A stretch of 64,000 nucleotides of DNA, from IMG/VR virus record IMGVR_UViG_3300025940_000007, positions 12,702 to 76,701 of that record. The stretch is one strand, 5' to 3'. Below the pieces are notes generated by a model that saw nothing but the letters and a program-made list of their open reading frames with translations, was not told where the DNA came from and ran no database searches. This stretch comes from a virus. Within the stretch, counting starts at the first letter, position 1, and every line of letters begins with the position of its first letter. Both the position numbers and the translations under genes were made by a program. Shown here piece by piece: positions 1,195 through 54,688 of this stretch.

Positions 1195-1273
1195 GGGTCG
1201 CCGGGCAACCGGCGGCCCGGAGGCCCGGCCACAGCACATATGAAACCCACGACTGGGTTGCCGGGCCTCCACC
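1195..1273 (+). ncRNA. solitary TIGR-like guide unit preceded by a GCAA-tetraloop hairpin
   Basis: ggaggcccggc-ca-CAGCACATA-tgaaaccca-CGACTGGGT-tg-ccgggcctcc (1219-1270). Confidence 0.85.
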
Positions 1274-3019: not shown

Positions 3020-3092
3020 CCTCCGTGAGGAGGCTAAGGAGGCCCGGCCAGTACATCGACGCAACCCATGTTGCTCATGCCGGGCCTCCACC
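3020..3092 (+). ncRNA. solitary TIGR-like guide unit preceded by a GTGA-tetraloop hairpin
   Basis: ggaggcccggc-ca-GTACATCGA-cgcaaccca-TGTTGCTCA-tg-ccgggcctcc (3038-3089). Confidence 0.85.
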
Positions 3093-3122
3093 TTTTTTCA
3101 TTCAACTAAGGAGCAACCAAAC

Positions 3123-11548: not shown

Positions 11549-11578
11549 TTGCATCGTACAAAAACAGCGTGTTACAAT
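11549..11578 (+). promoter_or_regulatory. sigma70-like promoter for the guide/tas operon
   Basis: TTGCAT-18 nt-TACAAT with TG extension; predicted start falls at the GNRA hairpin at 11585. Confidence 0.6.
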
Positions 11579-11584
11579 TCGCAC

Positions 11585-11653
11585 GCCGAGTAATCGGCAC
11601 GAGCCCCGGCCAATGTTCGGTTGAAACCCTATAAATCAATGCCGGGGCTCACC
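11585..11653 (+). ncRNA. solitary TIGR-like guide unit preceded by a GTAA-tetraloop hairpin
   Basis: gagccccggc-ca-ATGTTCGGT-tgaaaccct-ATAAATCAA-tg-ccggggctc (11601-11650). Confidence 0.85.
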
Positions 11654-11671
11654 TCTAATTTAGGAGCAACC

Positions 11672-12316
11672 ATGAGCATCAGATCAATCGCCATCGCGGC
11701 TCTACGCGAGCACGGTGGCAAGCCCGAGAAGGCTACCGCTGCGTTTGTGCAGGCGGCGCGCAAGGCGGGCAAGCTCAATGAGCTCGCTCTGGTTTATCTG
11801 CGGATGATCGCCTCGCAGGGCATCGTTGATGCGGTCGCTACGGGCGCCAGTAGCGGCACCGAAAAACCGGTCAGCCCGCGCGTCGCCGCCGTGCTGTCGG
11901 CGCCCAGATCGAACGTCACACCGATCGACACAGCCCGCCGATCGCCCTCCCGCAAGCTCGCCGCACGTGGCGCAATGGCCGAGAGCGTCGAGGCGGTTTA
12001 CGAAATGCAGTTCGACGGTCGCGCGCTCGGTCGCGTGCAGTTCGGGCAGTTGATCACGATGAAGCGGGAGTTCATCGAGGATGCGGCGTCGATGCTCGAA
12101 CACGGCAAACTGTTTGTGCGCAATGCGGTGCTCGCTGGCTTGATCCACGATCACTGCGTCGCTGCGGACGATCTCGCCGAGGTGCGTACGCTGGTCGCGC
12201 CGAAGAAGCTCGCCGCTATGGTCGCACAAGCGGATCGAGAAGCACCAAAGAGAATCGCCGAGGCCACGAGGCGCGCGGCGGAAGCAATGGCAACACCAAA
12301 GGAGCTAGCACGATGA
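11672..12316 (+). CDS. hypothetical protein translationally coupled to the tas gene
   Basis: AGGAG RBS, ATG at 11672, ATGA overlap with 12313. Confidence 0.75.
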   Translation: MSIRSIAIAALREHGGKPEKATAAFVQAARKAGKLNELALVYLRMIASQGIVDAVATGASSGTEKPVSPRVAAVLSAPRSNVTPIDTARRSPSRKLAARGAMAESVEAVYEMQFDGRALGRVQFGQLITMKREFIEDAASMLEHGKLFVRNAVLAGLIHDHCVAADDLAEVRTLVAPKKLAAMVAQADREAPKRIAEATRRAAEAMATPKELAR

Positions 12317-13284
12317 AGAAGCCCACCAAGACGCCCGCGAAGAAGACCGCCGTCAAGAAGACTGCGAAGAAATCCGCTCCCAAAAAGAGCGGGAGCCCGG
12401 CCAGTCTCGCCATGAAATCCTCTGATGGATTGCCGGGCTCACAAATCCTCGACAAGATCATCGAGAGCCACCGTGCGCGGCGGTTCGCGATGGGCATCCA
12501 GCAAGTGCTGGATCGCAAAGTCGAGAGCTATGTCCGGATCAACTTCACCGAATGGAATGCGAACGACGCCGAGGACAGCCGTGCGAAGTCCAACGCCGAG
12601 GCGCTGGCGCTGCTCAAGGCGGCACGCGAGGGTGAAGGTGACGATGAGCTCATCCGCGCGGTGACGATGTCGGACAACGCCCGGGCGCATGCCGACGCCG
12701 AGCGCCTGCGCCACGAGAAGGTGATGACGTCGCTGGCCAAGGATCTGCCGATCGCACCGTGGATCGACTCGGTGCCGGGCCTCGGCTTGCTCGGTGTCGC
12801 CACGATCCTCGCTGAGACTGGCGATCTGTCGAAGTATGCGAACGTCGCCAAGGTTTGGAAGCGCCTTGGCTATGCTCCGTACAACGGACTCGCTGGCTCG
12901 ACGTGGAAGCGACCGAAATGGCGCAACGGTGAGCCCGCGCTCAGTGCCGAAGAGTGGACGCTCAATCCGTTCAACGGGAAGCGCTACGGGATGTTGTTCT
13001 CGATCTCCGACTCGCTGCTCCGCAAACAGTGGATCGGCAAAGCGAAGACCGAGGACGGCAAAGGCAAGGCCGATGGCAAATACGGCGCCGTATACGAGAA
13101 GCGCCGCGAGCACACTGCGGTGACGCACCCGGAGTGGACACCGAAGCACAGCCAGATGGACGGCCTTCGCATCATGATGAAGGAAGTCATTAAGGATCTG
13201 TGGGTCGAATGGAATCGACACGCAGCGGACGGGCGCCACACTTCTCGTGATCCCCTTGGGACGGATGCGCCCGTCCAACTCTAA
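12313..13284 (+). CDS. TIGR-associated Nop-domain RNA-binding protein (TasA-like; no RuvC or HNH visible)
   Basis: IS110/Nop-like core WIDSVPGLGLLGVATILAETGDLSKYANVAKVWKRLGYAP and C-terminal H...LR...K..IKDLWVEW; no DEDD or HNH motif; directly followed by a dual-spacer array. Confidence 0.85.
   Translation: MKKPTKTPAKKTAVKKTAKKSAPKKSGSPASLAMKSSDGLPGSQILDKIIESHRARRFAMGIQQVLDRKVESYVRINFTEWNANDAEDSRAKSNAEALALLKAAREGEGDDELIRAVTMSDNARAHADAERLRHEKVMTSLAKDLPIAPWIDSVPGLGLLGVATILAETGDLSKYANVAKVWKRLGYAPYNGLAGSTWKRPKWRNGEPALSAEEWTLNPFNGKRYGMLFSISDSLLRKQWIGKAKTEDGKGKADGKYGAVYEKRREHTAVTHPEWTPKHSQMDGLRIMMKEVIKDLWVEWNRHAADGRHTSRDPLGTDAPVQL
12393..12440 (+). ncRNA. TIGR-like guide unit inside the 5' part of the tas CDS
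   Basis: gagcccggc-ca-GTCTCGCCA-tgaaatcct-CTGATGGAT-tg-ccgggctc. Confidence 0.75.
13227..13276 (+). ncRNA. TIGR-like guide unit inside the 3' end of the tas CDS
   Basis: ggacgggcgc-ca-CACTTCTCG-tgatcccct-TGGGACGGA-tg-cgcccgtcc. Confidence 0.8.
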
Positions 13285-13285
13285 T

Positions 13286-13774
13286 CGGTCGCCATCGTCC
13301 CGTTGAAAACCAACGCCTTGGTGCGACCGCGAGCCCCGGCCTGCTGCGCTGTGAAGCCCACGAGGGTGCCGCCGGGGCTCACCTATTCGAGATCGTCTGC
13401 AGCGATGCAGGCGAGAGCCAGAGACCACCTAACGCGCGGAGCCCATTATTGCTCTGTCTCTGGCTCACCAATTCAAGACACGGTCGCCTCAGTGCTTGTG
13501 AAGCCCAGAGATGGCATGCGACCGTAGAGCCACGGCCCGTTGTACTTGCGAAGACCAAAGGTCACTTGGCCGTGGCTCACCCATTCAAGATCACCGCCAG
13601 CGATGGCGGTGCGAGCCCCGGCCACACTGCTTGTGAAGCCCGTTCTCGGATTGCCGGGGCTCACCTAATTCGAACTACGGTCGCCACGATGCAGATGGAA
13701 ACCAACCAGCCGATGCGACCGCGAGCCCCGGCCACTCCTCGGATGGAAAACCCATGCGCTATTTGCCGGGGCTC
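13286..13774 (+). ncRNA. stem-loop TIGR-like array 1 (8 guide units and 2 empty GCGA hairpins)
   Basis: Alternating cggtcgc/gcgaccg and gagccccggc/gccggggctc stems, each enclosing CC(A)-N9-TGAAGCCCA-like-N9-TG. Confidence 0.9.
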
Positions 13775-14051
13775 ACCTCTTCTTCCGCTTACCGAAGATG
13801 TCGGGCCGAATCTCTTCGGGCGTCATTTCGATCAGCGGTGCAATATCGAGCACGTGGTGCGCGGGTACTTTATTCCACGCGGCTACGTTCTGGTGAGACA
13901 CATTGAGATGTCGAGCAATGACACTCGCAAAGCCGGGTTTGCTGAAGATCATCTTCATGACGTGATCGCGCTGCGAGTCACGTCGTTCGCTTGATCGTCT
14001 CATGATCTCGCCGCGCATAAAGCGCGCGGCCTCCACTGCTGTGCTGCTCAT
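13773..14051 (-). CDS. second Cro/YdaS-like regulator
   Basis: IARHLNVSHQNVAAWNKVPAHH...EEIRPDIFG; paralogous to 11228-11479. Confidence 0.8.
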   Translation of the reverse strand: MSSTAVEAARFMRGEIMRRSSERRDSQRDHVMKMIFSKPGFASVIARHLNVSHQNVAAWNKVPAHHVLDIAPLIEMTPEEIRPDIFGKRKKR

Positions 14052-14108
14052 TGTCAGGCTTCCTTTGTTAGAGTGCTAACGAACTTACTGAGAGGAGAAC
14101 ATAGCCAC

Positions 14109-14136
14109 TTGAATTAAATTATCAACCGCCTACATT
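14109..14136 (+). promoter_or_regulatory. putative sigma70 promoter
   Basis: TTGAAT-16 nt-TACATT in the AT-rich divergent intergenic region. Confidence 0.4.
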
Positions 14137-14193
14137 GCAATCCAACTACCGCTTGAACTGCCCCAACCCATCCCCCACAGGAGACCACCCGAG

Positions 14194-15003
14194 ATGAAAT
14201 TCCCCAACATGGTTGCCGCCGCCGACGCCCGCGCAAAGCATCTGAAGGACGCAGAGGGCCGCGATCTCTGGCTTCTGGGCGCCGCGACACTCAAGGATTG
14301 CGGCGACGAGATCTTGACCGAGGAGAAGACAATCTCCTCCAGCAAACGTGCGATCAAAGCGCTGGAGAGCGCCGCGAAAGAACTGGCGAAGCACGGGCAC
14401 GAGTACAGCCACATCACCCTGCGCCAGATGGCGGAGACGGTGCTGGCCTTCCCGGCATCCCGGCGCCACGAGGGCGTGACGTTCTTCACGCACACCGAGG
14501 CGCGCAATCCCGACTTGCTCGACTGGATGGTGAAGCAAGTGGGCAAGGAAAAGCTCAGCGGACGCGTCGCCCGTGAGCTCGTCACCCGCTGGTACAATCT
14601 GCAAGCCAACCAGCGCCGCGAGAAGATCGAAGCGGCGAAGGACAAGAAGCGGGCCGCGACTACGCTTGAGGACAAGCGGGCCGCGACGAAAGAGATCAAA
14701 GAATTGGGCAGCACCATGCCGACGCCGAAAGCGTTTCTGGCGCCGCCCGATGAAGACAACCAGCACGCGCTGGCTGTCATGGCGGACGTGCTCAGCATCG
14801 ACGCTGATGCAATGTCCGTGACGCGCACGCTGAGGACCAACCTCTCCGCGTTGCGCAAGATGGGCGAGATCGATCCTGATTTCGTGGGCTCTCTGATCGA
14901 GCATCACGAACAGATTGTCGAGGTCGCCAAGCAGATCGTTAGCGTCCTCAAGGATGCGAAGCGCAACAGGTTCACCACGATCGAAGGAGGAAAGTCAGCA
15001 TGA
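14194..15003 (+). CDS. hypothetical DNA-binding protein (LmbU-like HTH segment)
   Basis: YSHITLRQMAETVLAFPASRRHEGVTFFTH resembles the phage/LmbU motif Y.TL..YA.VA..F..SRR...LS..HH; AGGAG RBS. Confidence 0.5.
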   Translation: MKFPNMVAAADARAKHLKDAEGRDLWLLGAATLKDCGDEILTEEKTISSSKRAIKALESAAKELAKHGHEYSHITLRQMAETVLAFPASRRHEGVTFFTHTEARNPDLLDWMVKQVGKEKLSGRVARELVTRWYNLQANQRREKIEAAKDKKRAATTLEDKRAATKEIKELGSTMPTPKAFLAPPDEDNQHALAVMADVLSIDADAMSVTRTLRTNLSALRKMGEIDPDFVGSLIEHHEQIVEVAKQIVSVLKDAKRNRFTTIEGGKSA

Positions 15004-15602
15004 CTTTAAGAGTAGTAGGAGGCACCACCGCTGCCAATAACGGCAGCGGCGGTGGAGGCGGTCGCGGTGGGCGCGGTCGCGGTCGCGGTCCCACACCGCC
15101 GCCGCCCCGCGCCTTCAAGCCGCACGAGCTTGCGGATCACTTGTGGAACGCGCTGTTTCCGAGTGGAGTGACGTCGATCTATCGCATCGCAACGTTGATG
15201 TCGAGATCGGCGGGCATCGAAGTCTCGGTCGCCACGGTGCGTATGGTGATCGATCACGTCAGGAAAAACCACGCCTCGTATGGCTGGTCGGTCCCGCCGG
15301 TTGAAAAAGGCCGCACGGGCGCGAACAGGAAATACATCGCGGCGCCGGAAGACGTGAACGATCCGGATAACGCGGTCACCGCAGCCGAAGCGGATGGCCA
15401 TCAGGAAGCGGTGCAGCGTGGTATGGTCTCCACGATGCGCACGATCACCACCAACGGCGAGCGTGCCGGTGCATCAGTTGATCTGTTCGCCAACTCGCTC
15501 AATGTTTCGCGCGGCGATAAGCGGTTGCTGCGTGGTGCCGGTGCGGCGCTGACTGGCGCGGCAGCGATCATTAAGGACGTGCTCACCCGCATGGGCGTGT
15601 AG
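15000..15602 (+). CDS. hypothetical protein with Gly/Arg-rich N-terminus
   Basis: ATGA-coupled; GGAGG RBS. Confidence 0.65.
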   Translation: MTLRVVGGTTAANNGSGGGGGRGGRGRGRGPTPPPPRAFKPHELADHLWNALFPSGVTSIYRIATLMSRSAGIEVSVATVRMVIDHVRKNHASYGWSVPPVEKGRTGANRKYIAAPEDVNDPDNAVTAAEADGHQEAVQRGMVSTMRTITTNGERAGASVDLFANSLNVSRGDKRLLRGAGAALTGAAAIIKDVLTRMGV

Positions 15603-15706
15603 TCCTCAACAGTTGACGCCCGGGACTCTTGCCCCCAAGCCCAGCCCGGGCTTCATGAGCCCGCGCCGTCCACCTCCACCGAGGTGAGGCGGCGCGGGTG
15701 ACTACC

Positions 15707-15759
15707 GAGCCCCGGCTGTGGATCAGTTGAAGCCCTACCTACCTTTGCCGGGGCTCACC
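15707..15759 (+). ncRNA. solitary TIGR-like guide unit in the 5' UTR of recE
   Basis: gagccccggc-tg-TGGATCAGT-tgaagccct-ACCTACCTT-tg-ccggggctc. Confidence 0.8.
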
Positions 15760-15784
15760 CTTTTTCAAACTCAAGGAGCAACAG

Positions 15785-16714
15785 ATGCAAGTGCGCAAGT
15801 GGGACGGACTCCCGATATCGAAGCCCGGTTGGGTCAGCGGAATTCCGATCGAACGCTATCACAGTGCCGGGATCTGCAACGGCCCGTCTGTGAGCTCTTC
15901 AAATCTGCGTCGGTGCTGGACGCACAGCCCCGCGCACATGTTCGCGCAGTGGGCAGAGAATCCGAACGCAGAGCCGAAAGAGGCGACGCGTCAGATGGTG
16001 CTCGGGCAGGCAGCGCATCACTTGCTGCTCGGTGAGGATGGCTTCTCAACAAAGTTCGTCGCGCAGCCGCCGGAATATCCGGACAAGAAAACTGGCGAGA
16101 AGAAAAAGTGGCACAACGGCGCCGAGTTTTGCAAGGCGTGGAACGCCAAGCAGATTGGCAAGACCATCGTGACCGTTGAGGAGTTGCAATCCATCATCGC
16201 GATGTCGCGCTCGCTCGCGCTGGAGCCGCTCGTCAAGGAAGGCCTGCTGACCGGCCACGTTGAGACGTCCGGATTCATTCGTGACGGCGAGACAGGTTTG
16301 TGGATCAAGGTCCGGCCCGACGTGATCCCGACCGATGGCGGCGACTTCGCGGATCTCAAAACCGCGAACGAGGTGACGACCGTTGCGCTGATGTCGGCGA
16401 TCCGGACCTACGCGCTCCACATGCAGGGTGCATTAATCTGGGAAGTCGCGGAGACGCTCGGCCAGCCGTTCGAGAGCTTCGTGTTGATGTTCATCGAGAC
16501 GCAGAATCCATACTGTGCACGCGTGGCGCCGATGGATGACAAGGATCTGAGTTTCGGGCGCCAGCAGAACCGCTTGATGCTGCGGACGATCAAGGGATGT
16601 ATGGAGGCGAACCACTTCCCGGGTCCGGGCGAGGGCGATCTGCGACCGCTGCCGCTGTCGAACGACGAGCGCTCGCGGATCGAGGAGCGTCTGAAATTGG
16701 AGAATGCATTATGA
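15785..16714 (+). CDS. RecE/exonuclease VIII-like PD-(D/E)xK nuclease (DUF3799 type)
   Basis: YH...SSSNL...SPAH, G.AAH.LLL, KVRPD...ADLKT, Y..H.Q motifs. Confidence 0.88.
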   Translation: MQVRKWDGLPISKPGWVSGIPIERYHSAGICNGPSVSSSNLRRCWTHSPAHMFAQWAENPNAEPKEATRQMVLGQAAHHLLLGEDGFSTKFVAQPPEYPDKKTGEKKKWHNGAEFCKAWNAKQIGKTIVTVEELQSIIAMSRSLALEPLVKEGLLTGHVETSGFIRDGETGLWIKVRPDVIPTDGGDFADLKTANEVTTVALMSAIRTYALHMQGALIWEVAETLGQPFESFVLMFIETQNPYCARVAPMDDKDLSFGRQQNRLMLRTIKGCMEANHFPGPGEGDLRPLPLSNDERSRIEERLKLENAL

Positions 16715-16920
16715 GAAAGCCGGGCGGACAGAAGGCGCGCGGTTTCTATCTGGCGATGTGCGACAAGCCGAACTGCGGCCCGCACATCATTGCCTTCGAC
16801 AGGAACGAGGTGCCGATCTGCGACGTCGCCATCCCGCTGGACGGCGTCCGCTCGCTGATACAGGCGCTGCAGCGCATGTCGTACATCAAGGCTGTGGAGC
16901 AGGATGATGAAGGAGACTGA
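16711..16920 (+). CDS. hypothetical protein
   Basis: ATGA-coupled; GGAG RBS. Confidence 0.55.
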   Translation: MRKPGGQKARGFYLAMCDKPNCGPHIIAFDRNEVPICDVAIPLDGVRSLIQALQRMSYIKAVEQDDEGD

Positions 16921-18352
16921 GCGGCGCCGGATCGAGCGCGAGATCCTCCAGAAGAAAACAGGGATGCGGCACTGCGCTTCCTGCGATCAATTCCGGGCGC
17001 CGGATGATTTCCCGGCGCCCGGGGCGATTAGGTGCAGCCGCTGCTTGGTCAGCCAGTCACAGTCGCGCACCGATCCGGCGCTCGACTTTCGCGGGCTCGA
17101 CATCAAGCGCAAGGGCGACTCGTTCGTCATCGAGAAGGCCGACGACCCGAACGCATTGCCAATGGAGGCTGACGAATTGACCGATCGACTCATGGAAGGG
17201 GCGCCGCTGTTCGGCAAGGCAAGCGACGTGCTTGGCGATCGTGGCCAGTCGCACAAGTTCGGCCCGGGCTATGATGACATTCGCACCCAGCGCGCGGCGC
17301 GTCGCGACGACAGCGTGGCGCGGATGCTGTTGAACACTGTGCGCAAGGAAGAACCGCCGCCGCTGTTGCTGGACGATCGCCCGCTGATCGATCGACTGCA
17401 CGAGGGCACCTTCACCAATGCGCCCGGGCTGTCCACGATCAAGGATCTCTACGGACTGCGCATGCTGTTGCGGAAAGCACACTGCTTCACCCTGAGTGAA
17501 GAGACGTCGCGGCTGGTGGCGGATTTCTCGATGGCGATCTCGGGCGATCTGGAGTCGTCGCGCAAGATGGCGATCCCGCCGTTCCCGGTCACGTGGATCG
17601 ATCTCGACAACCGCGCGCGGTTGAACCGGATGCGCGAGCTCGGCATCTCGCTGACGCCACAGGCCGCCGGGGAGACCGAGGCCGGGGCGCCGGTCGATCG
17701 CGTGGGCTGGCTGATTCATCCCGGCGTCGAGCATGGTGGGTTTCATGCGAGCTATTGCTGCGTGGTCGAGCAGGGCGCGCTCGTGGCGCCGCTCTCATAC
17801 TGGTGGCATTGTGGGACATCGGCGCCGATGCGCGAAGTGGCGGGCAACGATGTGCTGATGCAGGGGCTTACGTTCGGAATGAAGAACGTCAACGTGCATC
17901 CGCACGATGCCTTCCCGTGCCCGACCGTGTTGCATGATGACCTAAAGGTCCGCGACAAGGAGCATGTGCTCGAACTGATGTCAGAGATCTCCGGAGAGCT
18001 CCGCCACGTGTGGGGCCTGCTGATCGCTCTGGGCGCCGGGCAACTCGGGATGGAAGCGAAGACCAGCGTGCAGCCGAAGCACACAGATATCCGGAAGATG
18101 CCGAACGGCAAGCCGCTGTTGCCGCTGGAGCACAAGGTGCTTCACTTGCACCTCGCGAAGAAGATGACGCCAGCGCGTGTCGTGGTGCGGATGATGACGC
18201 ATCACAAGCACAGATGGCACGAGGTGCGGGCGCATTTCCGCACCTACAAAAATCCGGATGGCACGGTGCGGATGCGCATCCCGATAAAAAGTCACGAGCG
18301 CGGTGATGAACGCTTGGGACGAATCGAAAAAACTTATAGTGTTGAGAAGTGA
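16904..18352 (+). CDS. hypothetical phage protein (N-terminal Zn finger, C-terminal H.VRAH.R motif)
   Basis: 482 aa; CASC..CSRC; RWHEVRAHFR...HERGDERLG. Confidence 0.7.
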   Translation: MMKETERRRIEREILQKKTGMRHCASCDQFRAPDDFPAPGAIRCSRCLVSQSQSRTDPALDFRGLDIKRKGDSFVIEKADDPNALPMEADELTDRLMEGAPLFGKASDVLGDRGQSHKFGPGYDDIRTQRAARRDDSVARMLLNTVRKEEPPPLLLDDRPLIDRLHEGTFTNAPGLSTIKDLYGLRMLLRKAHCFTLSEETSRLVADFSMAISGDLESSRKMAIPPFPVTWIDLDNRARLNRMRELGISLTPQAAGETEAGAPVDRVGWLIHPGVEHGGFHASYCCVVEQGALVAPLSYWWHCGTSAPMREVAGNDVLMQGLTFGMKNVNVHPHDAFPCPTVLHDDLKVRDKEHVLELMSEISGELRHVWGLLIALGAGQLGMEAKTSVQPKHTDIRKMPNGKPLLPLEHKVLHLHLAKKMTPARVVVRMMTHHKHRWHEVRAHFRTYKNPDGTVRMRIPIKSHERGDERLGRIEKTYSVEK

Positions 18353-18378
18353 CAAGCGGTATGTGATACACTTCAAGA

Positions 18379-18449
18379 TCCGCCGCGAGGCGGAGGAGGC
18401 CCGGCCAGAGCGATGGTGAAACCCACAGTGACATTGCCGGGCCTCCACC
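18379..18449 (+). ncRNA. solitary TIGR-like guide unit (GCGA hairpin + guide) in the 5' UTR of recT
   Basis: ggaggcccggc-ca-GAGCGATGG-tgaaaccca-CAGTGACAT-tg-ccgggcctcc (18395-18446). Confidence 0.85.
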
Positions 18450-18470
18450 TAATTCAAACAGGAGCAGTTT

Positions 18471-19490
18471 ATGGACATCAACGAAATCGAACGTCGCGTC
18501 GATCGCGCGATCGCGGCACCGATCCCGGTCAATGCGGATCTCGGCGGGCTCACGTTGGAAAACATGGGCCAAGTCATGGAGTTCGCGAAGCTCATGAGCG
18601 TCTCCGGCGCCGCTGTGCCCAAGTATCTGCGCGGCAATCCGGGCGCCTGTCTCGCCATCTGTTCGCGCGCGCTGCGGTGGAAGATGGACCCGTTCGCCGT
18701 GGCGGAAAAATCCTATCAAGTGATCAACAAGGGCGAGGAGCGCGTGGCGTTCGAGGCCCAGTTGGTTCATGCCGTGGTCACCGCGCGCGCACCGTTGAAG
18801 GGGCGCCTGCGTCATGAGATTATTGGAGAGGGCGACGATCGGCGATGCGTCGTATGGGGCACGTTCAAGAACGAAGATGCCCCGCACAAGTACACCAGCG
18901 AAACGCTCGGCAAACTGCGCGACGCCCGGGGCCGCAATGACTACGGCGCGGTGAAAGGCTCTCCGCTTTGGGATAATCAGCCCGAGGTGCAGTTGGCTTA
19001 TTCCGCCGTGCGCCAATGGTGCCGACTTTACGCGTCGGAAACGCTGCTCGGAGTCTACACTCCGGACGAGCTCGAAGACGGCAGCACGCCGAAAGACGTG
19101 ACACCGACCAAGACCGAGTTGCTGACGCAGCGCCTGAAAGATCAGAAGGCGCAGCATGCTGACACACGCAGGGGATTCGATGCTGACTACGTCGCCAAGC
19201 AGGCGGCGCTCAGTTCGATAATCGAAGGCGACGTCAATTCCGATGAAGCCGAGACAAAGGGAGAGAGAGATGACGGCGGTAGCAATGAGCCTGACGCTGC
19301 GCGAGGGGCGGACGGTGCTGGTGATCGACGGGATGGAGATCGAGACCAAGGCGGAAGCGAAGGCGGTCTCAACGATGATCAGTCAGTGGGCGGAGGGTCT
19401 GCCGGAGAGCAAGCCCCGGACGCCGAGGAAGGCGAAGAAGGCAGCGCGCCAAACCGCCAAGCGAAGCCGAGCCCCAAGGGCAAACGGTGA
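18471..19490 (+). CDS. RecT/Bet-like ssDNA annealing protein
   Basis: VPKYLRGNPGACLAI..A.RW.MDPFAVA, SPLW...P..QLAY.A.R.WCRLY..E.LLGVYT.DEL. Confidence 0.88.
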   Translation: MDINEIERRVDRAIAAPIPVNADLGGLTLENMGQVMEFAKLMSVSGAAVPKYLRGNPGACLAICSRALRWKMDPFAVAEKSYQVINKGEERVAFEAQLVHAVVTARAPLKGRLRHEIIGEGDDRRCVVWGTFKNEDAPHKYTSETLGKLRDARGRNDYGAVKGSPLWDNQPEVQLAYSAVRQWCRLYASETLLGVYTPDELEDGSTPKDVTPTKTELLTQRLKDQKAQHADTRRGFDADYVAKQAALSSIIEGDVNSDEAETKGERDDGGSNEPDAARGADGAGDRRDGDRDQGGSEGGLNDDQSVGGGSAGEQAPDAEEGEEGSAPNRQAKPSPKGKR

Positions 19491-19533
19491 AGTGATCGAT
19501 GACGCTGAGACAGCGCAGGAGTCGCTTATCTGA
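19270..19533 (+). CDS. small protein overlapping the recT 3' tail in another frame
   Basis: Purine-rich RBS (AAAGGGAGAG) then MTAVAMSLTLREGRTVLVIDG... Confidence 0.5.
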   Translation: MTAVAMSLTLREGRTVLVIDGMEIETKAEAKAVSTMISQWAEGLPESKPRTPRKAKKAARQTAKRSRAPRANGEVIDDAETAQESLI

Positions 19534-19822
19534 TCCCGGCTATCTGGCTTGGCTGCGCAAGCAGCGATGCGCGTGTTGCCAACAGCCGCCGCCATGCGAT
19601 GCGGCTCATCTTCGAGCCTCATCGTTCGCGTACGGCAAGACGAATGGCATGGGGCAGAAGCCTGACGACAACTGGGCTCTGCCGTTAAAACACATGCATC
19701 ACATGGCGCAACACTACAGCGGCAATGAACTCGCATGGTGGGAGACGCACGGCGTCGCTGATCCGTTTGCGCTGGCGCAGAATTACTACGCCAGATATCT
19801 GAAACTCAAAGGAGCACCGTAA
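19499..19822 (+). CDS. DUF968-like HNH/Zn-finger protein
   Basis: YLAWLRKQRCACC...DAAH...GMGQKPDD..ALPL..HH..QH. Confidence 0.75.
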   Translation: MTLRQRRSRLSDPGYLAWLRKQRCACCQQPPPCDAAHLRASSFAYGKTNGMGQKPDDNWALPLKHMHHMAQHYSGNELAWWETHGVADPFALAQNYYARYLKLKGAP

Positions 19823-20030
19823 TCGGTCGCCTTGGCCATGATGAAACCCAGATGATCTTCGCGACCGACGAGCCCGGCCAAGCAGTAACTGGTATCCATT
19901 GAACTGGCGCCGGGCTCACCTATTCAAGATCGGTTGCCAGCGATTGAGTGAGAACCACAGATCGGTAAGCGACCGTAGAGCCTCGGCCAGCAATAGTCTG
20001 AAACCCATCGCACGAGTGCCGGGGCTCACC
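19823..20030 (+). ncRNA. stem-loop TIGR-like array 2 (4 guide units)
   Basis: Spacer pairs TGGCCATGA/GATGATCTT, AGCAGTAAC/TTGAACTGG, GCGATTGAG/CAGATCGGT, GCAATAGTC/TCGCACGAG in alternating stems. Confidence 0.88.
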
Positions 20031-20054
20031 AATTTTAACCCAGAAGGAAACCAA

Positions 20055-20477
20055 ATGACCACCACCTCCGTCATCCCACACGACCGCCTGCACGTAGCAA
20101 ACGACCTCGAACAGGCAATCCACAGCGGAGCACAAGCCATTCGTGAAGGCGCGCGCATGCCGAGGACCACGCCGCTGATTCCGACGCAGATGCGCGGGCT
20201 TGACGAGCTCGGCAAGATGTCTGCCGAGGCTGTCCTCACGCAATACGAAGCCGCAGCGAAAGCGGTGGAGGACATGGGGAAGGAGGTCACCGCGATGGTG
20301 CGCAAGCTCGGCCAGTCGCTGCAGGAATGCGACAACGACATGAAGGTTGTCGCCGAGACTGCGGCGGCGATCCGAGAGAAGGGCAAGCACTCTCAGGCCC
20401 TGATCGAACAGGTAAGTGCGCTATCCTCCGAGATCCGCAAGACCTGTGATGAATTCAAGAAAAAGGTCGGGCTATGA
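20055..20477 (+). CDS. hypothetical coiled-coil protein
   Basis: AAGGA RBS then ATG at 20055. Confidence 0.7.
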   Translation: MTTTSVIPHDRLHVANDLEQAIHSGAQAIREGARMPRTTPLIPTQMRGLDELGKMSAEAVLTQYEAAAKAVEDMGKEVTAMVRKLGQSLQECDNDMKVVAETAAAIREKGKHSQALIEQVSALSSEIRKTCDEFKKKVGL

Positions 20478-23279
20478 CGCGAGACGAAAAGATCACGGTG
20501 CTTTATCATCTGTGCCGGGCTCTGCATGAGAACGGCCAGACGATGACCTACGGACAGGCGGCGAAGATGGTGGGATGCATTCCGATCGCCCTCGGTCCCA
20601 CGTTGCTTGGCGCGGTGAACCATCGCGCCAACGACATCATCACGGACGTGATCGTCAACGCCACGACCCGGCACCCGGGCGACGGCATCGCGATCGGCCC
20701 GCCGTGATCCTCAATTACAAACGCAACACGCGCGGGACGCTGCAGGCTGCACAGGCTGGCAGCGTCCGCGTCGGCTATGTCGAGCAAAGCGTCCAGCCCA
20801 ACCGCTGGATCTGGAGTTTGAACACCATCCAACCCAAGGGCGGACGCGCAAGCGGCATCGAGGAGACCGAGCACCTCGCCAAGGAGGCGCTGGAGCGTCA
20901 GTGGGTCAAGTGGATTGAGGCCGCCGGTCTTTCGATAAAGGAGCACGTGGAATGAGACAGTTTCTCAAAATCGGACTCGGCGGATCGGCGGCGCTGGCGC
21001 TGGTGATCACGTTCGCGCTCGGGCGTACACCGTCACCCGCGCAGGACCAGAAGGCCTTCGAGGCGTGGGCCGCGAGACTTGCGGATGATCCGGAGCCATT
21101 GAAGAAGGCCGATCAGATCCGGGTGGTGAGCACCGAGCGCATCGTGGTCGAGCCGATCGTCAAGGAAGTCGCAGTGCAAACGAAGGTGCCGCCGATCATC
21201 CAGACCGATGACGACAAGGGCGAAAAACCGAAGAAGCGAATACATCATCGCACCCGCGTAGCTGACGCTGGCGGCAATGTCTGCACGCGCCACGGCAAAC
21301 GCAAAGTGACCACGCATGGTGGTCGATCATGGAGATGCAGATGACCGAGACTTATTTGGGCGACGGGCTCTACGCCTCGTTCGACGGCTTTCAATTCTGC
21401 CTGCGGGCGCCGCGCGGTAACGGGGACCACAAGGTCTTCCTCGACGCTGCAACGATGCACGCGTTCGATCAATTCAGGAAGAGCATATCTGCCGCCAACA
21501 ATGTCGCGCGTGACCAGATCGACCGCGAGCTCGGCAAGCTGCAGGCTGGCGAGCCCTCGATCACGGACGGCAGGCGATGAGGCTCAGCGATGAGATGTCG
21601 AAACATTGGTTCGGGTTGCCGGTGAAGCTGCGCGTGCGATGGTGGGTCGAAACAGATTACGGCAAGAAAGAACCGAGCGAAGAATTGAAGCGCGAGATCG
21701 AAGCAGCGATCGTGGAAAAGGGGAAGGTTGATGGACGAACACCTTGATGGATTATCAGCGCTGGTGCACGAGAGGCTGAAGCGCCTGAAGATGGACGAGA
21801 CCGCGTCGATCACGTGCACGAAGGAATTCCCGGGGGACGAGGTGCGGCTCTACGTGACAGCCTACGCGATGCACAAGAAGAAGTGGTTTCTCACCGAGTA
21901 TGACAAGGCGACAAACACGGTGAAGTGCAAGCGCGCGCCGGAGCCCGATTGGGAAGCCCAGAACGTAGTCGATGAAGAGGAAGAGTTGTGATGGTGGACA
22001 CCACCCAGATGAGTCTCGAAGACTATCAGGCGTACATGGATAAGCTCGCGCTGCGCATCAGCGAGACCATGAAGGGCGCCCGGCTGGAGGATGCGCTGAG
22101 CGCCTGTGCCGCCAACATTGGATTCGGCATGGTGCAGTTGCCGGAGGCGCAGCACGACAAGATGCGCGCGCACCTCAACAAGATCATCGACGCGATCCTT
22201 GAGAAGGCGCCGAGGCCGCAATGAGAGACAACGACATGAGCGTGGTCCCCACGCGGTTCTGGCAGTCGATGTCGCTGGAGGAATTCGACGCGCTCGCCAA
22301 GAATGACGGCTGGCTCAATGCAATTCAGTGCGCCCGGCTGTGGCGCATGACCGAACGCAACACGCGACCGCCGCTCAAGCTACAGATATTTCTCAAGCGC
22401 GACGAAGTCGAGAAGTTAGCCAAATGATGGGGCCGGGAAAACATGACGATCTTTGCACGCTGGTGCGTGAGCAACTCGGACTCGGCGACACGGGCGGCGT
22501 GATGCTGATCGTGTTCGGCACCAAGGAGCAGAGCGGCTTCGCGTGTCAGTGCGACTACATGACGACGATGGCGCTGCCGGAGATTCTGGAAGACGTCGCG
22601 AGGCAGATCCGTGAGGATCGCGAGAAGGGCATCGTATGAAAAAGTTCGTGCCGCTGACGCTGCAGGCGAACCGGATCAAGTCTGGTCAGTATGGCAGTGA
22701 CGAGTCGTATGGTCTGGCTGGAGCTTTCCGCCTGATCGCGCCGGGAGGCACGCTGTTGCTGGCCCTATCGAGTGGGCCAGAGAACGCGGCGAATGACACG
22801 GGCTGGGAGCACGTATCGGTTTCGGCGGAGCAACGTCCGCCGACGTGGGAGGAGATGTGCTGGATCAAAGATATCTTCTGGGATAAACACGAAATGGCGG
22901 TGCAGTATCATCCGCCGGAATCAGAGTATGTGAATTTTCATCCGCACGTTCTGCACATCTGGCGCCCCACGCAGATGACGATTCCGATGCCGCCCATGTT
23001 GCTCGTGGGACCAAAGCGATGACGACGATTCACCACAGGACCACGTGTCCGTTCTGCGGCACGCACCATGACCGGATCACCTCGACCATAGAGGAGGTGG
23101 CACCGGAGGACGGCGACGCCTCGATGTGCTTCGCCTGTGGCGAGTTCAACATCGTGGATAGCAGCACCGACGAAGGGATGCGCAAGCCGACCAAGCGCGA
23201 GCGGCGGATGCTCGATGACGACGAACGGATTGCCGAGCTACGGGAGGCGTGGCGCATGGCAAGAACGGTGCGGCAATGA
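20474..23279 (+). CDS. run of about 11 short, mostly translationally coupled hypothetical genes (e.g. 20474-20707, 20952-21344, 21341-21580, 21731-21991, 21988-22224, 22221-22427, 22424-22639, 22636-23022, 23019-23279)
   Basis: Consecutive ATGA overlaps; 22636-23022 carries the common phage motif WEHVSVS...PTWEEMC. Confidence 0.65.
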
Positions 23280-23289
23280 CAATCCAGAT

Positions 23290-24030
23290 CGATCGCCATC
23301 GTACTGTTGCAACCCAACGAGCGAATGCGATCGCGAGCCCGGCCCGGTTATATTTGAAGCCCCCTATGCGGACGCCGGGCTCACCCTTTCGAATCGATCG
23401 CCGGTCAGTGAGTGCAAACCACAGAAGACTTGCGATCGCGAGCCCGGCCAATTCATCGATGAAGCCCAAAGCCGATATGCCGGGCTCACCCTTTCAAATC
23501 GGTCGCCTGATCAATCGTGATCTCCAAGGAAATCTTGCGACCGCGAGCCCGGCCTCTCGCCCTTTGAGGCCCACGTTGTTGATGCCGGGCTCACCCTTTC
23601 CAATCGCCAGCCATTTTGAAGGTGCAAACCCGAGCATGGATGCTGGCGAGAGCCGGGGCCACAACTGTCGTGCGATCCCGATCGCGGGTGCCCCGGCTCA
23701 CTCAATTCGAATCGGTCGCCAGACGTTGTGTGAGATCCCATCTGCACTTGCGACCGACGAGCCCGGCCCGTTCGCCCTTGATGCCCTTGAACCGTATGCC
23801 GGGCTCACTCTTTCGAAGATCGGTCGGCCCTCCGGTCGATGAAGCCCCCGGACCGATTGCTGACCGTAGAGCCCCGGCCCACGAGCGACTGAAGCCCACT
23901 GTCTGCGTGCCGGGGCTCACCTAACACGAGATCGGTCGCCGCCACCGCTGTGAGACCCACACGGCATCTGCGACCGCGAGCCCCGGCCACCGAGCACCTG
24001 AAGCCCAAACGAGCAGTGCCGGGGCTCACC
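23290..24030 (+). ncRNA. stem-loop TIGR-like array 3 (14 guide units in 7 tandem pairs, period about 107 nt)
   Basis: Strict alternation of cg(g/a)tcgc- and gagccc(c)ggc-type stems, each with two 9-nt variable spacers around a 9-nt loop repeat. Confidence 0.92.
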
Positions 24031-24065
24031 TTTCTTTCGACGCGTCAACGAGTTGGAGAACACTC

Positions 24066-24356
24066 GTGCTTTTAATCTGCGAGCGTTGCCACCGCTACTG
24101 GCGCCCACAGCGAGGCAAGAAGCGTCAGAACATCTGTCCGAAATGCGCTTGGCTCGGGCGATCGGCTGGCGCCAAGAAGCGGGAAGCCCGAAAGCGGATA
24201 GTGGCTCAGACGCTCAGCGCGCCCGCTGGAGAGGCCGGGGCGCCTGCCCGCCCCTTCGACGCGGACGAACTGCTCCGCCTCATGGCTGACGCAGACAGCG
24301 CGGCTGCGCGTGCCCTCGAACTGGCACGAAGGATCGGCGCCAAGCTCGGCTCGTGA
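24066..24356 (+). CDS. hypothetical Zn-finger protein
   Basis: GGAG RBS, CERC...CPKC. Confidence 0.55.
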   Translation: MLLICERCHRYWRPQRGKKRQNICPKCAWLGRSAGAKKREARKRIVAQTLSAPAGEAGAPARPFDADELLRLMADADSAAARALELARRIGAKLGS

Positions 24357-37737: not shown

Positions 37738-40092
37738 TCAAGCAACAGCGACGTCGATGCGTTCGCCGACGAGATAACAGGCGTTCACGTTGTCCGTGGT
37801 GCCCTCCATGCGGATTTTGTACGCGGTGATCGCAGTGCCGCCGAGCGCTGCCAAATTCCACGTGCAGTGGCGCAGCAACACAGTCGGATCATCCGGATCG
37901 ACTTCGTCCTCGATCAGTGATGGCGTCCGCACACTGGTGTAGCCCGCACCAGTCAATAGGCGCGGAATGAAGGTGTGGTACGGCGCACCACGCCACGACT
38001 CTAGCCGGAAATCTCCGTAGACCGTCGTGACGGGTCCGGGCGTGGTCCGCGCGGTACTGATGTGGCGGAAGTCCGAGCGAGGCCGCGACGTCAGCGATCG
38101 CGAATTCGCCGCCACACCGAAGCCGGGCATTTCGTCGGTCGTGCCCACCAGTGTGATCCGGAATGGCAACAGCGGCGGCAGCGCAACGAGCGGGTTGGTG
38201 TCGTAGTAGCCGAGCGGCACCCACGCGCCGTTGACTTGCACCTCGAAATTGATCGTGGTGCCGGGCGGGCGCGTCGAGTCGAAGTTCAAATCGATCGCCG
38301 AGATACCGCCGTTCAATTCCAGCGACAGCAGTTGCGCGGTGCACTGCGTGGTGCGGAATTTCGCGAAGTAGAGCCGGAAAGAAAGATCCTTGGTGAGATC
38401 GCCGAGCGCCCACGCTCCATCGGTGGAAGTGAACATCGAGCCTTGCGCGAACTTGTTGTTGTGCACCAACGCGACGAAATGATTGCCGGGCGTCTGTAGG
38501 ACGAAGGCGTAACGCTGACCCTTCGCCAGATAGGTCGGCAGGAAGTCGAACTTGGTCGCGTTCGGTGACGGTCGCAGCAAGTCCGCAGGCTTGGTCGAGC
38601 GCGCAATCGTTCGCTCGAAATTCGGCGCACCGGCTTCGTTACATTCGCAGATCAGGCAGTGCACGTCGCCCGTTGCCGCGATGCGGGTGAAGAAGATATC
38701 GACGCCAGTCAGCCAGCCGCCCTGTGAATTGAGATAGGTCTGCGAGATCACCGAGCCCGACAAACCATCGACCGTGATGACTTGCCGCCAGTAATACGAG
38801 TCCACGATTTCATCGACCCAGAACTGCACGAGCCGGAGCACCGTGTGGTTCGGGTTGTCCATCACGTCGAGGATCTGGAACGTCTCGGTGCCGCGCGTCA
38901 GGATGTTGCGGATCGGATCGTAGATCAGATCGGTGTTCGGCGTGTAGCCGCCGACAGCCGCAGGAGGCATACCGACGTTCGTTCCGTAGTCGTGACCGGC
39001 TGGCGCGAACCACCAGACGCCGTTCGAGCAGACCACCATCGGCGTGCCCCAACGAATGCGCGTTCTGGTCTTGGCGCAGAGCTCCCACGAGATCGTTTGA
39101 TACTGATACTGGGAGATCGACAGTTCGGAATCCTTGCCGAGCACCTCGATGCGCACCACTTGGTCGTACACAGGCAGAACGAAGTTGGCCTGATTGATCA
39201 CCGCCGGGTCCATCGGGTTCAACAGCCCAAACTGCGCCTCGCGTTCGGCGGCGTTCGGGAAGCGAATACCCTCCTCGCACTTAGCGAGGTAATCCACGTT
39301 CTGCAGATCGGACTCGTCCGTGGTTAGGAAGTGATCGGCGCCCCACATCGAATAGGTGTCAGGCAGGCCAACCTTTTCCTTCACGCGCGCGACGTCGGTT
39401 GCGATCTTCAGCACGAACTTCATGCCAGCGGTGCCGTTCAAGCGCACAGCCAGCGCGGCCATGTCGGTCGCCAGTGTGTCGAGCCGTGACGCAGTCTGCG
39501 CACGCCATGCATCCATCTCGTTCAAGCGGTCATCGAGATCAGCAAGGTTCGGCGCCCGGTTCTCGTTCACCATCTGGATCGAGATGATGCCGGTGCTGTC
39601 GAGCAAGATCCAAGCAACCGCCAGCGTGTTCGATGCCACGCTCGGATGCTGCGGGTCCGGACCTTCGGCGCCGATCACGGTGCTGATGTTGGCCCAGCGA
39701 CGGCTTTCGGTGGAGACCACACGCGCGACGGTGGCACGCGTCACCGGATCAGTCAGGAAGGTTCTCGGCTCGGTGTCGGTCTCGATCTCTTGGCCCCAGA
39801 CCACCACGCCGACATATCGACGCGTCACCACCGGGAGCACGCCGAGCAAGTCGAGAGAGGCGCCGCCCTCGCTGTCGTTATAGAACACCAAGCCGTTATG
39901 GTAGAGCCGCCCGTTGCCCACGGTGACCACCGCTGGCGCCGTCTGCACCGTGGTGAAGCCCGTGTACGCCATGCTCGGGATCAAGGTATCCACAACGACA
40001 TGGTCGAAAGATGCACGCGGGAAGAGGCCGAAGTTATTGAAGTCTTCGACAGTCACCTTCTGCCAGTCTTGGATGTTTACCTTGCGTTCCAT
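37738..40092 (-). CDS. large baseplate/tail-associated virion protein
   Basis: 784 aa downstream of the gpI-like gene; SVISQT...GWLTGVDIFF beta-rich C-terminus. Confidence 0.7.
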   Translation of the reverse strand: MERKVNIQDWQKVTVEDFNNFGLFPRASFDHVVVDTLIPSMAYTGFTTVQTAPAVVTVGNGRLYHNGLVFYNDSEGGASLDLLGVLPVVTRRYVGVVVWGQEIETDTEPRTFLTDPVTRATVARVVSTESRRWANISTVIGAEGPDPQHPSVASNTLAVAWILLDSTGIISIQMVNENRAPNLADLDDRLNEMDAWRAQTASRLDTLATDMAALAVRLNGTAGMKFVLKIATDVARVKEKVGLPDTYSMWGADHFLTTDESDLQNVDYLAKCEEGIRFPNAAEREAQFGLLNPMDPAVINQANFVLPVYDQVVRIEVLGKDSELSISQYQYQTISWELCAKTRTRIRWGTPMVVCSNGVWWFAPAGHDYGTNVGMPPAAVGGYTPNTDLIYDPIRNILTRGTETFQILDVMDNPNHTVLRLVQFWVDEIVDSYYWRQVITVDGLSGSVISQTYLNSQGGWLTGVDIFFTRIAATGDVHCLICECNEAGAPNFERTIARSTKPADLLRPSPNATKFDFLPTYLAKGQRYAFVLQTPGNHFVALVHNNKFAQGSMFTSTDGAWALGDLTKDLSFRLYFAKFRTTQCTAQLLSLELNGGISAIDLNFDSTRPPGTTINFEVQVNGAWVPLGYYDTNPLVALPPLLPFRITLVGTTDEMPGFGVAANSRSLTSRPRSDFRHISTARTTPGPVTTVYGDFRLESWRGAPYHTFIPRLLTGAGYTSVRTPSLIEDEVDPDDPTVLLRHCTWNLAALGGTAITAYKIRMEGTTDNVNACYLVGERIDVAVA

Positions 40093-45937: not shown

Positions 45938-46351
45938 TCAATCTTCCAGCACGCGAACCATGTGCACATCCCACCGCCCGCTATAATCGGGATGAATGAA
46001 TGTGACCTCGTGCGTCTGGTTGCGATCAGGGAAGAACACGCGATCGCCCTTCTTCAAATCGCACTGCAGAATCGGCTCGTGCCGGATCGACAGCATCGTG
46101 TCCACCGTCGCTTGCCGCGTGATCATTGGCCCGCCCACGCCCTCGGTGGCGCCGCGCGTGGTATCGAAGATCCCCGTTGCGATCACCTCGACGCGGTCCG
46201 GATCAGGCACGCTCGCACGGTAGCCGCTCTTTTCCGTCCGCATCGGTTTCAGCACAACAGGTTCGCCGAACACGCTATCGACGCGGAAATCTACCGGCTT
46301 GCTGTCGTTGACGGTCGCCATGTTAGCCGTGCTCGATGGTTGCAGAGACAA
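45938..46351 (-). CDS. head-tail joining/closure protein
   Basis: VD.VFGE.V...P, KKGDRV, V..IHPD..GR; position. Confidence 0.65.
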   Translation of the reverse strand: MSLQPSSTANMATVNDSKPVDFRVDSVFGEPVVLKPMRTEKSGYRASVPDPDRVEVIATGIFDTTRGATEGVGGPMITRQATVDTMLSIRHEPILQCDLKKGDRVFFPDRNQTHEVTFIHPDYSGRWDVHMVRVLED

Positions 46352-54143: not shown

Positions 54144-54688
54144 TGCAGCGCCTTAACTACATAAGTTGATATTGCATTGATACGGCGGAACGAGATGATG
54201 AAGCGATCTCCGTTCGCCGTCGTCAGTAAGTCTCCTGTGTTGGTGCCGATCGTGAAGCCGGAAAATGTAATCGCACCAGCGGTCCCGCTGTTGGTCACCA
54301 TGAGATCAATCGCGCAATCACTGGTCGCCGAGTTGATGGTGAAGGCTCCGTTGTTGGCGATGTACTGATAATTCCCGAGCAGCGCATTGATGGTGATGTT
54401 GCCTGCCGCCAGCGGCGCCGGAGCAAATAAGAAGCCGCCCGTGAGTGTCTGTCCGCCCGCCACCGCGAGCCGTGTGCTGTCGGTCGGGTGAACGTGGTCC
54501 TCGCGCGAATAGGCGTCCGAGATGCCGCCATCAGCGGCGCCATTCATCAGCGGAAGGGAATTGCTCGGCGATGAGTTGAGCCTGACCGTCCATTTTTCGC
54601 CGTCCCATGTATAGGTCGAGATTCCATCGACCGGTGGCGATGGATAGGTCTGGCCGATGCTCGGCGCGTCTGGAAAATTCAAACTCAT
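54140..54688 (-). CDS. tail fibre-associated protein
   Basis: MSLNFPDAP.IGQ...WDGEKW N-terminus, YSREDHVHPTD motif. Confidence 0.75.
   Translation of the reverse strand: MSLNFPDAPSIGQTYPSPPVDGISTYTWDGEKWTVRLNSSPSNSLPLMNGAADGGISDAYSREDHVHPTDSTRLAVAGGQTLTGGFLFAPAPLAAGNITINALLGNYQYIANNGAFTINSATSDCAIDLMVTNSGTAGAITFSGFTIGTNTGDLLTTANGDRFIISFRRINAISTYVVKALQ

Follow-up and report, generated by a model that had tools for sequence, protein, structure and literature searches.

What does an uncultured tailed phage from soil gain from a Nop-domain protein without a nuclease and from dozens of short hairpins, each carrying two spacers of fixed length? This question is raised by the window (the whole 64,000-nt stretch analysed, part of a 76,701-bp virus record), which a sequence-only reading had taken to encode a stem-loop TIGR-TasA system. 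Stem-loop TIGR-TasA systems of phages have already been published, and tigRNAs inside the tas coding sequence have already been described in that class (Faure 2025, PMC12045711; Xu 2026, bioRxiv 10.64898/2026.09.09.750476; Guan 2026, bioRxiv 10.64898/2026.08.11.744272). The natural targets and the role of TIGR-Tas remained unknown in these papers, because the spacers are short and most of the loci are metagenomic fragments (Faure 2025; Xu 2026; Guan 2026).

The AF2 model of the tasA product (pLDDT 85) comprises a disordered Lys-rich tail (residues 1–40), a coiled coil (41–143), and a Nop C-terminal domain (148–308). In the profile and structure searches that the earlier reading had proposed as a check, TasH and TasR came ahead of IS110-type recombinases; the model matched TasH (9vzx; Z 15.9, rmsd 2.6 Å over 200 residues, VIA) and TasR (9mty; Z 15.5, VIA), and in the Foldseek and VIA order these were followed by IS621 and ISCro4 (Z ∼12) and then by Prp31 and Nop5 (Z ∼7), while the TasA family profile found TasR 9mty with an E-value of 2.9e-5. 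The sole Pfam match of TasA is Transposase_20, the IS110 C-terminal region, and the forecast that automated annotation would call the protein an IS110 transposase proved right, as JGI so names its homologues and PHROG gives transposase. A complete IS110 recombinase, the outcome that would have contradicted the assignment, was not seen. In agreement with the reading from the letters, no DEDD/RuvC or HNH domain was found in TasA by the Pfam search, its first helix begins at residue 41, HNH and DEDD domains are absent from longer TasA homologues too, and PF01548 (DEDD_Tnp_IS110) is absent from TasA and from the whole 76.7-kb record, with positive controls in six genomes. Fibrillarin (PF01269) was not found in the virus record, an absence that is not absolute because the record is ∼90% complete. 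At the C-terminus, the chain extends only 15 residues beyond the last helix, Tyr is absent from the final 46 residues, and the tail shows no conservation. The closest homologues share 70–76% identity and lie on 82–88-kb contigs. These results support the assignment of the product as a Tas-family Nop-domain protein without a nuclease (TasA).

The guide units have the form stem-CCN-9 nt-(T/C)G N4 CCN-9 nt-TG-stem, in which the C, G, and CC of the boxes are the invariant columns. By a strict pattern-plus-stem scan, the + strand of the window contains 32 units (∼3 expected from Markov shuffles), and the irregular unit 19937 and two long-stem units (L1 and L2, cores 37684–37715 and 45885–45916) bring the number to 35, all on the + strand. 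The figure of 35 given earlier is therefore correct for the window, with 31 of the units inside the span 11585–24030 for which it had been reported. Five further units upstream of the window in the same record raise the total to 40, of which 26 are in three arrays (8 + 4 + 14 units) at the positions previously described; the other 14 are solo units spread over 58 kb, including two that are antisense in the late operon. Both anomalies pointed out in the sequence-only reading are present, namely the 11-nt loop of unit 13732 and the irregular 3′ edge of unit 19937, which ends in AA instead of TG. The spacers were likewise correctly described as all different: no two of the 38 regular spacer pairs are the same, and their similarity does not exceed that of column-shuffled controls, a comparison by which recent spacer duplication was rejected. 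The stems show compensatory changes at 9/9 pairs, with 88% of cells paired (55% in shuffles) and a covariation score of 0.75 (0.20 in shuffles), and fall into two classes in strict alternation. The last bases of spacers A and B also covary, and 69% of them are pairable. A CUU motif at the stem base has been described as the processing site (Xu 2026); here, 14/38 units have a CTT no further than 15 nt 3′ of the stem, and the conserved flank is instead CTC-ACC (Table 1).

Table 1. Positions of the guide units, the tasA operon, and the phage's own copies of candidate target sites (window coordinates).
Feature	Position	Strand	Description
Solo unit (unit 1229)	1219..1270	+	Intergenic gap among early genes; 52.1 bits
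Solo unit	3038..3089	+	Intergenic gap
Putative promoter TTGCAT-17-TACAAT	11549..11577	+	Upstream of operon; by-eye reading only, not reported by consensus scan
Leader guide unit	11601..11650	+	5′ untranslated region of orfX-tasA operon; 49.5 bits
orfX	11673..12316	+	Unknown gene; stop overlaps tasA start
tasA	12313..13284	+	323-aa nuclease-less Tas protein; Shine-Dalgarno AAAGGAG precedes ATG (read in sequence)
Guide unit within tasA coding sequence	12393..12440	+	Falls in disordered N-terminal tail
Guide unit within tasA 3′ end (guide 13236)	13227..13276	+	17-bp target is WDGEKW-coding site of phage tail-fibre genes
Array 1	13286..13774	+	8 units, two alternating stem classes; also two spacer-less GCGA-tetraloop hairpins
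Solo unit	15707..15756	+	Ahead of PDDEXK nuclease gene
Solo unit	18395..18446	+	Ahead of RecT gene; example given in the sequence-only reading
Array 2	19823..20030	+	4 units, one with irregular 3′ edge
Array 3	23290..24030	+	14 units; followed by terminator-like hairpin at 24048-24067
Solo unit L1	37667..37734	+	Long private stem; antisense in late operon; abuts stop of gene 37738-40092
Own L1 target copy	40045..40061	-	Peptide QKVTVE; 2 synonymous mismatches; kin orthologues in two contigs 17/17
Solo unit L2	45861..45934	+	Long private stem; abuts stop of gene 45938-46351
Own L2 target copy	45982..45998	-	Peptide FIHPDYS; 4 mismatches, each at a silent third codon position
Own WDGEKW site	54591..54607	-	Tail-fibre-like gene 54140-54742; 2 synonymous mismatches to guide 13236
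Own WDGEKW site	56984..57000	-	Collagen-repeat tail-fibre gene 56587-57057; 2 synonymous mismatches to guide 13236

Units were found at 24 of 25 related IMG/VR tasA loci, where 264 covariance-model matches lie nearly all on the tasA strand. Relatives within the clade hold 27–37 units each, and the description of the present set as unusually expanded does not apply within the clade. The gene orfX was considered as a TasA partner and rejected, as it is not conserved beside tasA in relatives. Together, the structural matches to Tas proteins, the published unit anatomy, and the presence of units at the related loci bear out the TIGR-Tas identity proposed earlier, and the system is almost certainly a stem-loop TIGR-TasA of a tailed phage.

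The two spacers had been predicted to read opposite DNA strands as A followed by the reverse complement of B. This order stood, with exact natural matches occurring only as A + rc(B) and other strand orders remaining at control level, but the two full 9-nt reads (18 bp) did not, and the best site model consists of A(9) plus the reverse complement of B(1–8), or 17 bp. Searches of the phage's own genome, of 25 kin loci, and of four kin genomes gave only control-level numbers of contiguous 18-bp sites and of sites with gaps of 0–3, in both orders, and a one-base overlap was the only spacing with a signal among those tried. With mispaired guides as the control and counts made on unbiased 17-mers, 404 guides searched against 744 kb of kin DNA gave three exact matches (0.3 for mispaired guides) and 16 matches with at most one mismatch (3.7 for mispaired guides). 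After removal of near-identical loci, two exact matches remained (vs. 0), and the enrichment at no more than one mismatch was moderate (14 vs. 6). Fully synonymous two-mismatch matches in ORFs numbered 19, against 4.75 in controls. In solved stem-loop complexes, 9 + 9 = 18 bp are read (Xu 2026; Guan 2026); the 17-bp geometry was derived from the same DNA and is not an independent prediction. The in silico matches agree with two spacers that would read adjacent segments of opposite DNA strands.

The widest set of candidate targets belongs to guide 13236, which has at least 120 exact viral contig matches in IMG/VR, against 1–6 for five other guides; 117 of these matches, in 90 distinct contexts, fall within frames that stay open for at least 100 aa and read WDGEKW, a motif of tail-fibre genes. 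A point against the targeting reading is that, from codon usage alone, an own WDGEKW site would be expected to agree with this guide in only ∼15% of cases. For L1, two of three exact matches are at the corresponding codons of its neighbouring structural gene, in orthologues (79% identity) on two related contigs; only one orthologue contig (L048) covers the gap past the stop of the gene, and no L1 cassette is present there. The mismatch density of the own L1 site (2/17) equals the background divergence from relatives (∼11/77), and selected "recoding" is therefore not demonstrated. One guide of the relative L020 exactly matches tasA of three other loci (L017, L019, and L021), a rival allele that differs from its own by two residues. 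The 17-bp kin alleles AGAAGGTCACAGTCGAA and CACTTCTCGCCGTCCCA are candidate target sites. Mismatches to own copies are exclusively synonymous for the unit at genome position 8897 (upstream of the window), guide 13236 at both sites, L1, and L2; this rule fails for unit 1229, with mismatches at first codon positions in a gene with a Shine-Dalgarno site, and for 13340, and it holds in part for the unit at genome position 7986. A homologous exact target was not found in the IMG/VR scans for L2 or the genome 8897 unit, and the 26 array guides had no recognisable target, with 13340 and 23987 giving six IMG/VR matches each, indistinguishable from chance. When TasA homologues were searched at the peptide level, two cases were clear above a noisy result (46 vs. 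37).

By homology to PlTasA, MbTasA, and CsTasR, the early and middle transcripts that carry units would be cut into stem-loop tigRNAs, each of which would be bound by a TasA dimer through CCA (box C-like) and UG (box D-like), after which spacers A and B would each pair with a different strand of the DNA. Because TasA has no nuclease, the complex would stay on its site and block transcription or replication. The best explanation overall, which can be held with considerable confidence, is a stem-loop TIGR-TasA with guides to kin genes and mismatched own copies. Exact matches in genes of other phages indicate that the guides may be in use, and the combination of kin-matching guides with silent own differences suggests that such systems could serve phage-against-phage competition. 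Judged from sequence comparison, the role is somewhat more probably than otherwise interference with co-infecting or resident related phages, the phage itself being spared. Solo guides adjoin a mismatched own allele of the gene that they would target in relatives. A more tentative proposal is that TIGR-TasA acts as an inter-phage weapon, in which a solo guide and its adjacent mismatched ("immune") allele form a linked weapon-plus-immunity cassette that would silence the matching allele of co-infecting relatives and could be spread by recombination, with rival tasA among the targets and a 17-bp (9 + 8) code whose last spacer bases are paired across the dyad.

The guides might instead regulate the phage's own genes, with TasA on imperfect own sites (2–4 mismatches) timing or damping neighbour and tail-fibre expression and the exact kin matches being by-products of homology. 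Viral life cycle regulation has been named as a possible role (Xu 2026), and for five solo guides the best match anywhere in the genome lies in own, often adjacent, genes; the exact matches, however, are at relatives' sites and none at own sites, own-genome matches at 18 bp are at control level, and TIGR effectors are reported to be mismatch-sensitive, which makes such self-regulation unlikely. The closeness of the guide to the matching gene for L1, L2, and the upstream units at genome positions 7986 and 8897 would also fit near-matches that are fossils of spacer origin, 17 bp copied from nearby ancestral sequence and then drifted without present targeting. Yet guide 13236, 41–44 kb from its own sites, equals the tail-fibre motif version of at least 120 other viral contigs, and a fossil origin likewise fails to account for the guide whose match is a rival tasA allele two residues off the own allele; this origin is very unlikely.

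The location of solo units in intergenic gaps, with T-rich tracts after them, together with the transposase label from Pfam and PHROG, could be taken to indicate REP-like or terminator-like intergenic structures beside an unrelated, decayed IS110 transposase. This is highly improbable and already contradicted by the fixed 9-9-9 spacing, the conservation of CCA and UG in otherwise variable loops, the stem covariation, the accompaniment of tasA by units in 24 loci, and the protein's closest resemblance to solved Tas proteins. Box C/D-like RNA-guided modification of transcripts, which the Nop-domain fold and box C/D-like motifs might recall, is hardly credible, as no fibrillarin was found in the genome and the matches require spacers on opposite strands of one duplex site, which therefore points to a DNA target.

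Among known systems, the locus resembles PlTasA (Peromyscus leucopus gut contig), BlTasA, and MbTasA in its nuclease-less coiled-coil and Nop architecture with a disordered N-terminal tail, in its variable palindromic stems around two 9-nt segments separated by a 9-nt loop, with box C before the first segment and box D after the second, in having units upstream of, downstream of, and inside tas (in disordered segments), and in its phage carrier. It differs from them in its 14 solo units over 58 kb, its strictly alternating stem classes, its covarying last spacer bases, matches that fit 17 bp rather than 18 bp, and the identification of candidate natural targets. Dual-repeat TIGR with TasR or TasH (PDB 9MTY, 9W04) provides the best structural matches (Z 15–16) and would, like the present system, recognise opposite DNA strands as a dimer through tandem spacers. 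Dual-repeat guides are 36 nt long and have conserved edge and loop repeats, and the dual-repeat proteins carry a RuvC or HNH nuclease at the N-terminus and a Tyr/His processing loop at the C-terminus; the present system has no nuclease, variable stems, and no Tyr in the last 46 residues. The IS110 bridge-RNA recombinases (IS621, 8WT6; ISCro4, 9T56) have a comparable RNA-binding Nop-like domain (Z ∼12) and the Transposase_20 label, but here there are no DEDD/RuvC domain and no transposon ends, and many guides take the place of one bridge RNA. In proposed function, the closest parallel is VIPR, phage-encoded RNA-guided repressors directed against competing phages and even rival VIPR systems (bioRxiv 10.64898/2026.04.26.720920), although its protein and guide code (GGY/NN repeats) are unrelated and VIPR skips wobble positions, which the guides here would read. 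Box C/D snoRNPs (Nop5-fibrillarin-L7Ae) similarly have a Nop fold and follow box C/D logic with a pair of guide segments in each RNA, but have RNA targets and require fibrillarin and K-turns, neither of which was found here.

This near-complete phage offers a set of candidate targets in which exact kin alleles are paired with own silent-mismatch alleles, namely rival tasA, the orthologue of a structural gene, and a tail-fibre motif found in at least 120 viral contigs; it also offers the specific 17-bp geometry and the covarying base pair between the two spacers. No close cultured phage was found for this phage, and its sole genome match, which is also the only hint of a host, was a 4.7-kb contig of a Xanthobacteraceae MAG. 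Confirmation would place TIGR-TasA beside VIPR and phage-borne CRISPR as an RNA-guided tool of phage-phage conflict, and the targets of thousands of published tigRNAs could then be predicted afresh in the corrected register.

The tasA product (323 aa, preceded by a good Shine-Dalgarno site) is a TasA protein, because its AlphaFold model (built from 42 homologues; pLDDT 85) is closest to TasH (Z 15.9) and TasR (Z 15.5), its family profile matches TasR 9MTY (E 2.9e-5), and neither DEDD_Tnp_IS110 nor fibrillarin occurs in the genome, whose record is ~90% complete. The IS110 recombinases IS621 and ISCro4 rank lower (Z ~12), followed by Prp31 and Nop5 (Z ~7). In the model, residues 1-40 form a disordered, Lys-rich tail that is followed by three long helices and a C-terminal domain, likewise helical, and the IS110 C-terminal region is the sole Pfam match, in agreement with the IS110/Nop core without DEDD/RuvC proposed in the sequence-only reading. 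That reading also anticipated annotation as an IS110 transposase, a name carried by several of the at least 172 homologues, nearly all of which are metagenomic. The reading frame from tasA stays open across the array for 476 codons, so that gene callers lengthen tasA homologues (P0005-P0013) to 450-560 aa, in which no additional domain was found.

[quoted passage not shown] The TIGR-TasA papers call natural targets and spacer origin unknown, and no paper giving natural TIGR targets was found in a literature search; the interest of this case lies in candidate natural targets and a testable rule to find more. For VIPR, a phage system unrelated to this one, targeting of competitor phages has been demonstrated (bioRxiv 10.64898/2026.04.26.720920).

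A pattern-plus-stem scan of the + strand recovered 32 units with the layout stem-CCN-9-(T/C)G N4 CCN-9-TG-stem against ~3 expected. With unit 19937, which is irregular, and two units with long stems in the late operon (L1 and L2), the window total is 35, and five more lie upstream (40 in the whole genome). Three arrays of 8, 4 and 14 units hold 26 of them, with two alternating stem classes and linkers that measure 1 nt or 12-14 nt; these counts, and the claim that all spacers differ, were upheld on recounting, each spacer pair being distinct. Covariation is present in 9/9 stem pairs. Two units lie inside tasA, both in segments disordered in the structure model, and one in the operon leader. 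The majority of the 14 solo units lie 20-40 nt 3' of a stop codon and 25-35 nt 5' of the next start. Downstream of solo units, a pyrimidine- or T-rich tract precedes this phage's standard ribosome-binding context (AGGAGCAAC), and guide excision there may also cut or terminate polycistronic mRNA. Two spacer-less GCGA-tetraloop short hairpins occupy expected type-1 unit positions in array 1 and could be either units that have collapsed or signals for processing. A small divergent gene directly after array 1 is kept beside the arrays in two relatives (L003 and L005).

Features of the TIGR-TasA locus and its surroundings (window positions unless a locus is named)
Feature	Position	Strand
tasA	12313-13284	+
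Frame open from tasA across array	12313-13790	
13236 guide, inside 3' end of tasA	13227-13276	
Array 1	13286-13774	
GCGA-tetraloop hairpins	13392-13412; 13582-13601	
Divergent gene	13773-14051	-
Promoter-like site near divergent gene	14125-14098	
Pyrimidine- or T-rich tract and ribosome-binding context after solo units (examples)	1271-1300; 3090-3120; 15757-15785	
Recombination module	15785-19822	
Array 2	19823-20030	
Array 3	23290-24030	
Cores of the long-stem late-operon units L1 and L2	37684-37715; 45885-45916	
L1 guide	37667-37734	
L2 guide	45861-45934	
Collagen-like repeats	56700-56750; 60160-60830	-
L020 guide (relative)	L020:9905-9936	
Its match site in rival tasA	L017:10097-10113	

Among 25 related IMG/VR loci, a covariance model of the units gave 264 matches in 24, almost all on the tasA strand; one locus, L004, has a tasA homologue (52% identity), yet neither the pattern nor the covariance model detects a unit in it. 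In the whole genomes of four relatives the unit count ranges from 7 to 37, with some units 10-50 kb from tasA, so the unit number of this phage is ordinary for the clade and the system is not unusually expanded as had been proposed, though its 14 solo units are the most seen. The gene neighbourhood of tasA is not conserved among relatives.

Target searches with 18-bp sites or gaps of 0-3 were null. A 17-bp site in which both spacers share the central base pair was tested as well, together with own-gene matches carrying silent differences. Unbiased 17-mers (A9 + rc(B1-8)) matched 744 kb of kin DNA 3 times exactly and 16 times at <=1 mismatch, where mispaired guides gave 0.3 and 3.7. With near-identical loci removed, 2 exact and 14 <=1-mismatch hits were left, compared with 0 and 6 in the control, and the remaining spacer orders and strands stayed at control level. 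Two-mismatch ORF matches were fully synonymous in 19 cases versus 4.75 in controls. Across 404 unique clade guides, the last bases of A and B are Watson-Crick complementary in 46% versus 24% expected, G.U is also enriched (pairable combinations total 69%), and the rest of the 81 position pairs show no deviation; these covarying bases look like an RNA-RNA pair. Where the last bases disagree, exact targets follow A9. The proposal that two 9-nt spacers read opposite strands is supported in silico for A + rc(B); the natural matches fit 17 bp and not the 9+9 read in solved Tas complexes.

The 13236 guide has at least 120 exact IMG/VR matches, and five other guides have 1-6 each. Among the 120 listed, 117 lie in open frames of >=100 aa reading WDGEKW, close to the N-terminal end of fibre-like proteins, and represent 90 different contexts. 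The phage itself has two WDGEKW genes, each differing from the guide by two silent changes. Two of the three exact L1 matches are homologous codons (QKVTVE) in 79%-identical orthologues of the gene abutting L1, and the phage's own copy again has two silent differences. Of the two contigs with these orthologues, only L048 spans the stop of this gene, and no cassette was found in its following gap; L047 ends within the gene. For L2, the neighbouring own gene differs at four positions, all silent third-codon. A guide just upstream of tasA in the relative L020 exactly matches tasA of three other phages, and L020's own tasA has two different residues there, which would represent TIGR against TIGR; two further guides match conserved tasA motifs. 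The target-bearing loci contained no units (703 kb covered), and no recognisable target was found for the 26 array guides. Self-sparing is observed at the sequence level and may not reflect selection, since mismatch density at the own L1 site equals background divergence and codon usage alone makes non-matching of the own WDGEKW sites likely.

The carrier (source record 76,701 bp, ~90% complete; window, its bases 12702-76701) is a tailed phage, with a major head protein, tail sheath, tail proteins, collagen-repeat fibres (Gly-X-Y repeats) and endolysin on the - strand right arm and early genes, including RecT, a PDDEXK nuclease and DUF968, on the + strand left arm. Across 185,579 species genomes a tasA homologue occurs just once, on a 4.7-kb Xanthobacteraceae MAG contig (L028, DATGCX010000444.1), a weak hint to the host that agrees with 60% G+C and capsid similarity to Rhizobium phages. 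The recombination module (PDDEXK nuclease, 482-aa unknown protein, RecT and DUF968) is flanked by solo units and array 2, and would be relevant if guide cassettes spread by recombination.
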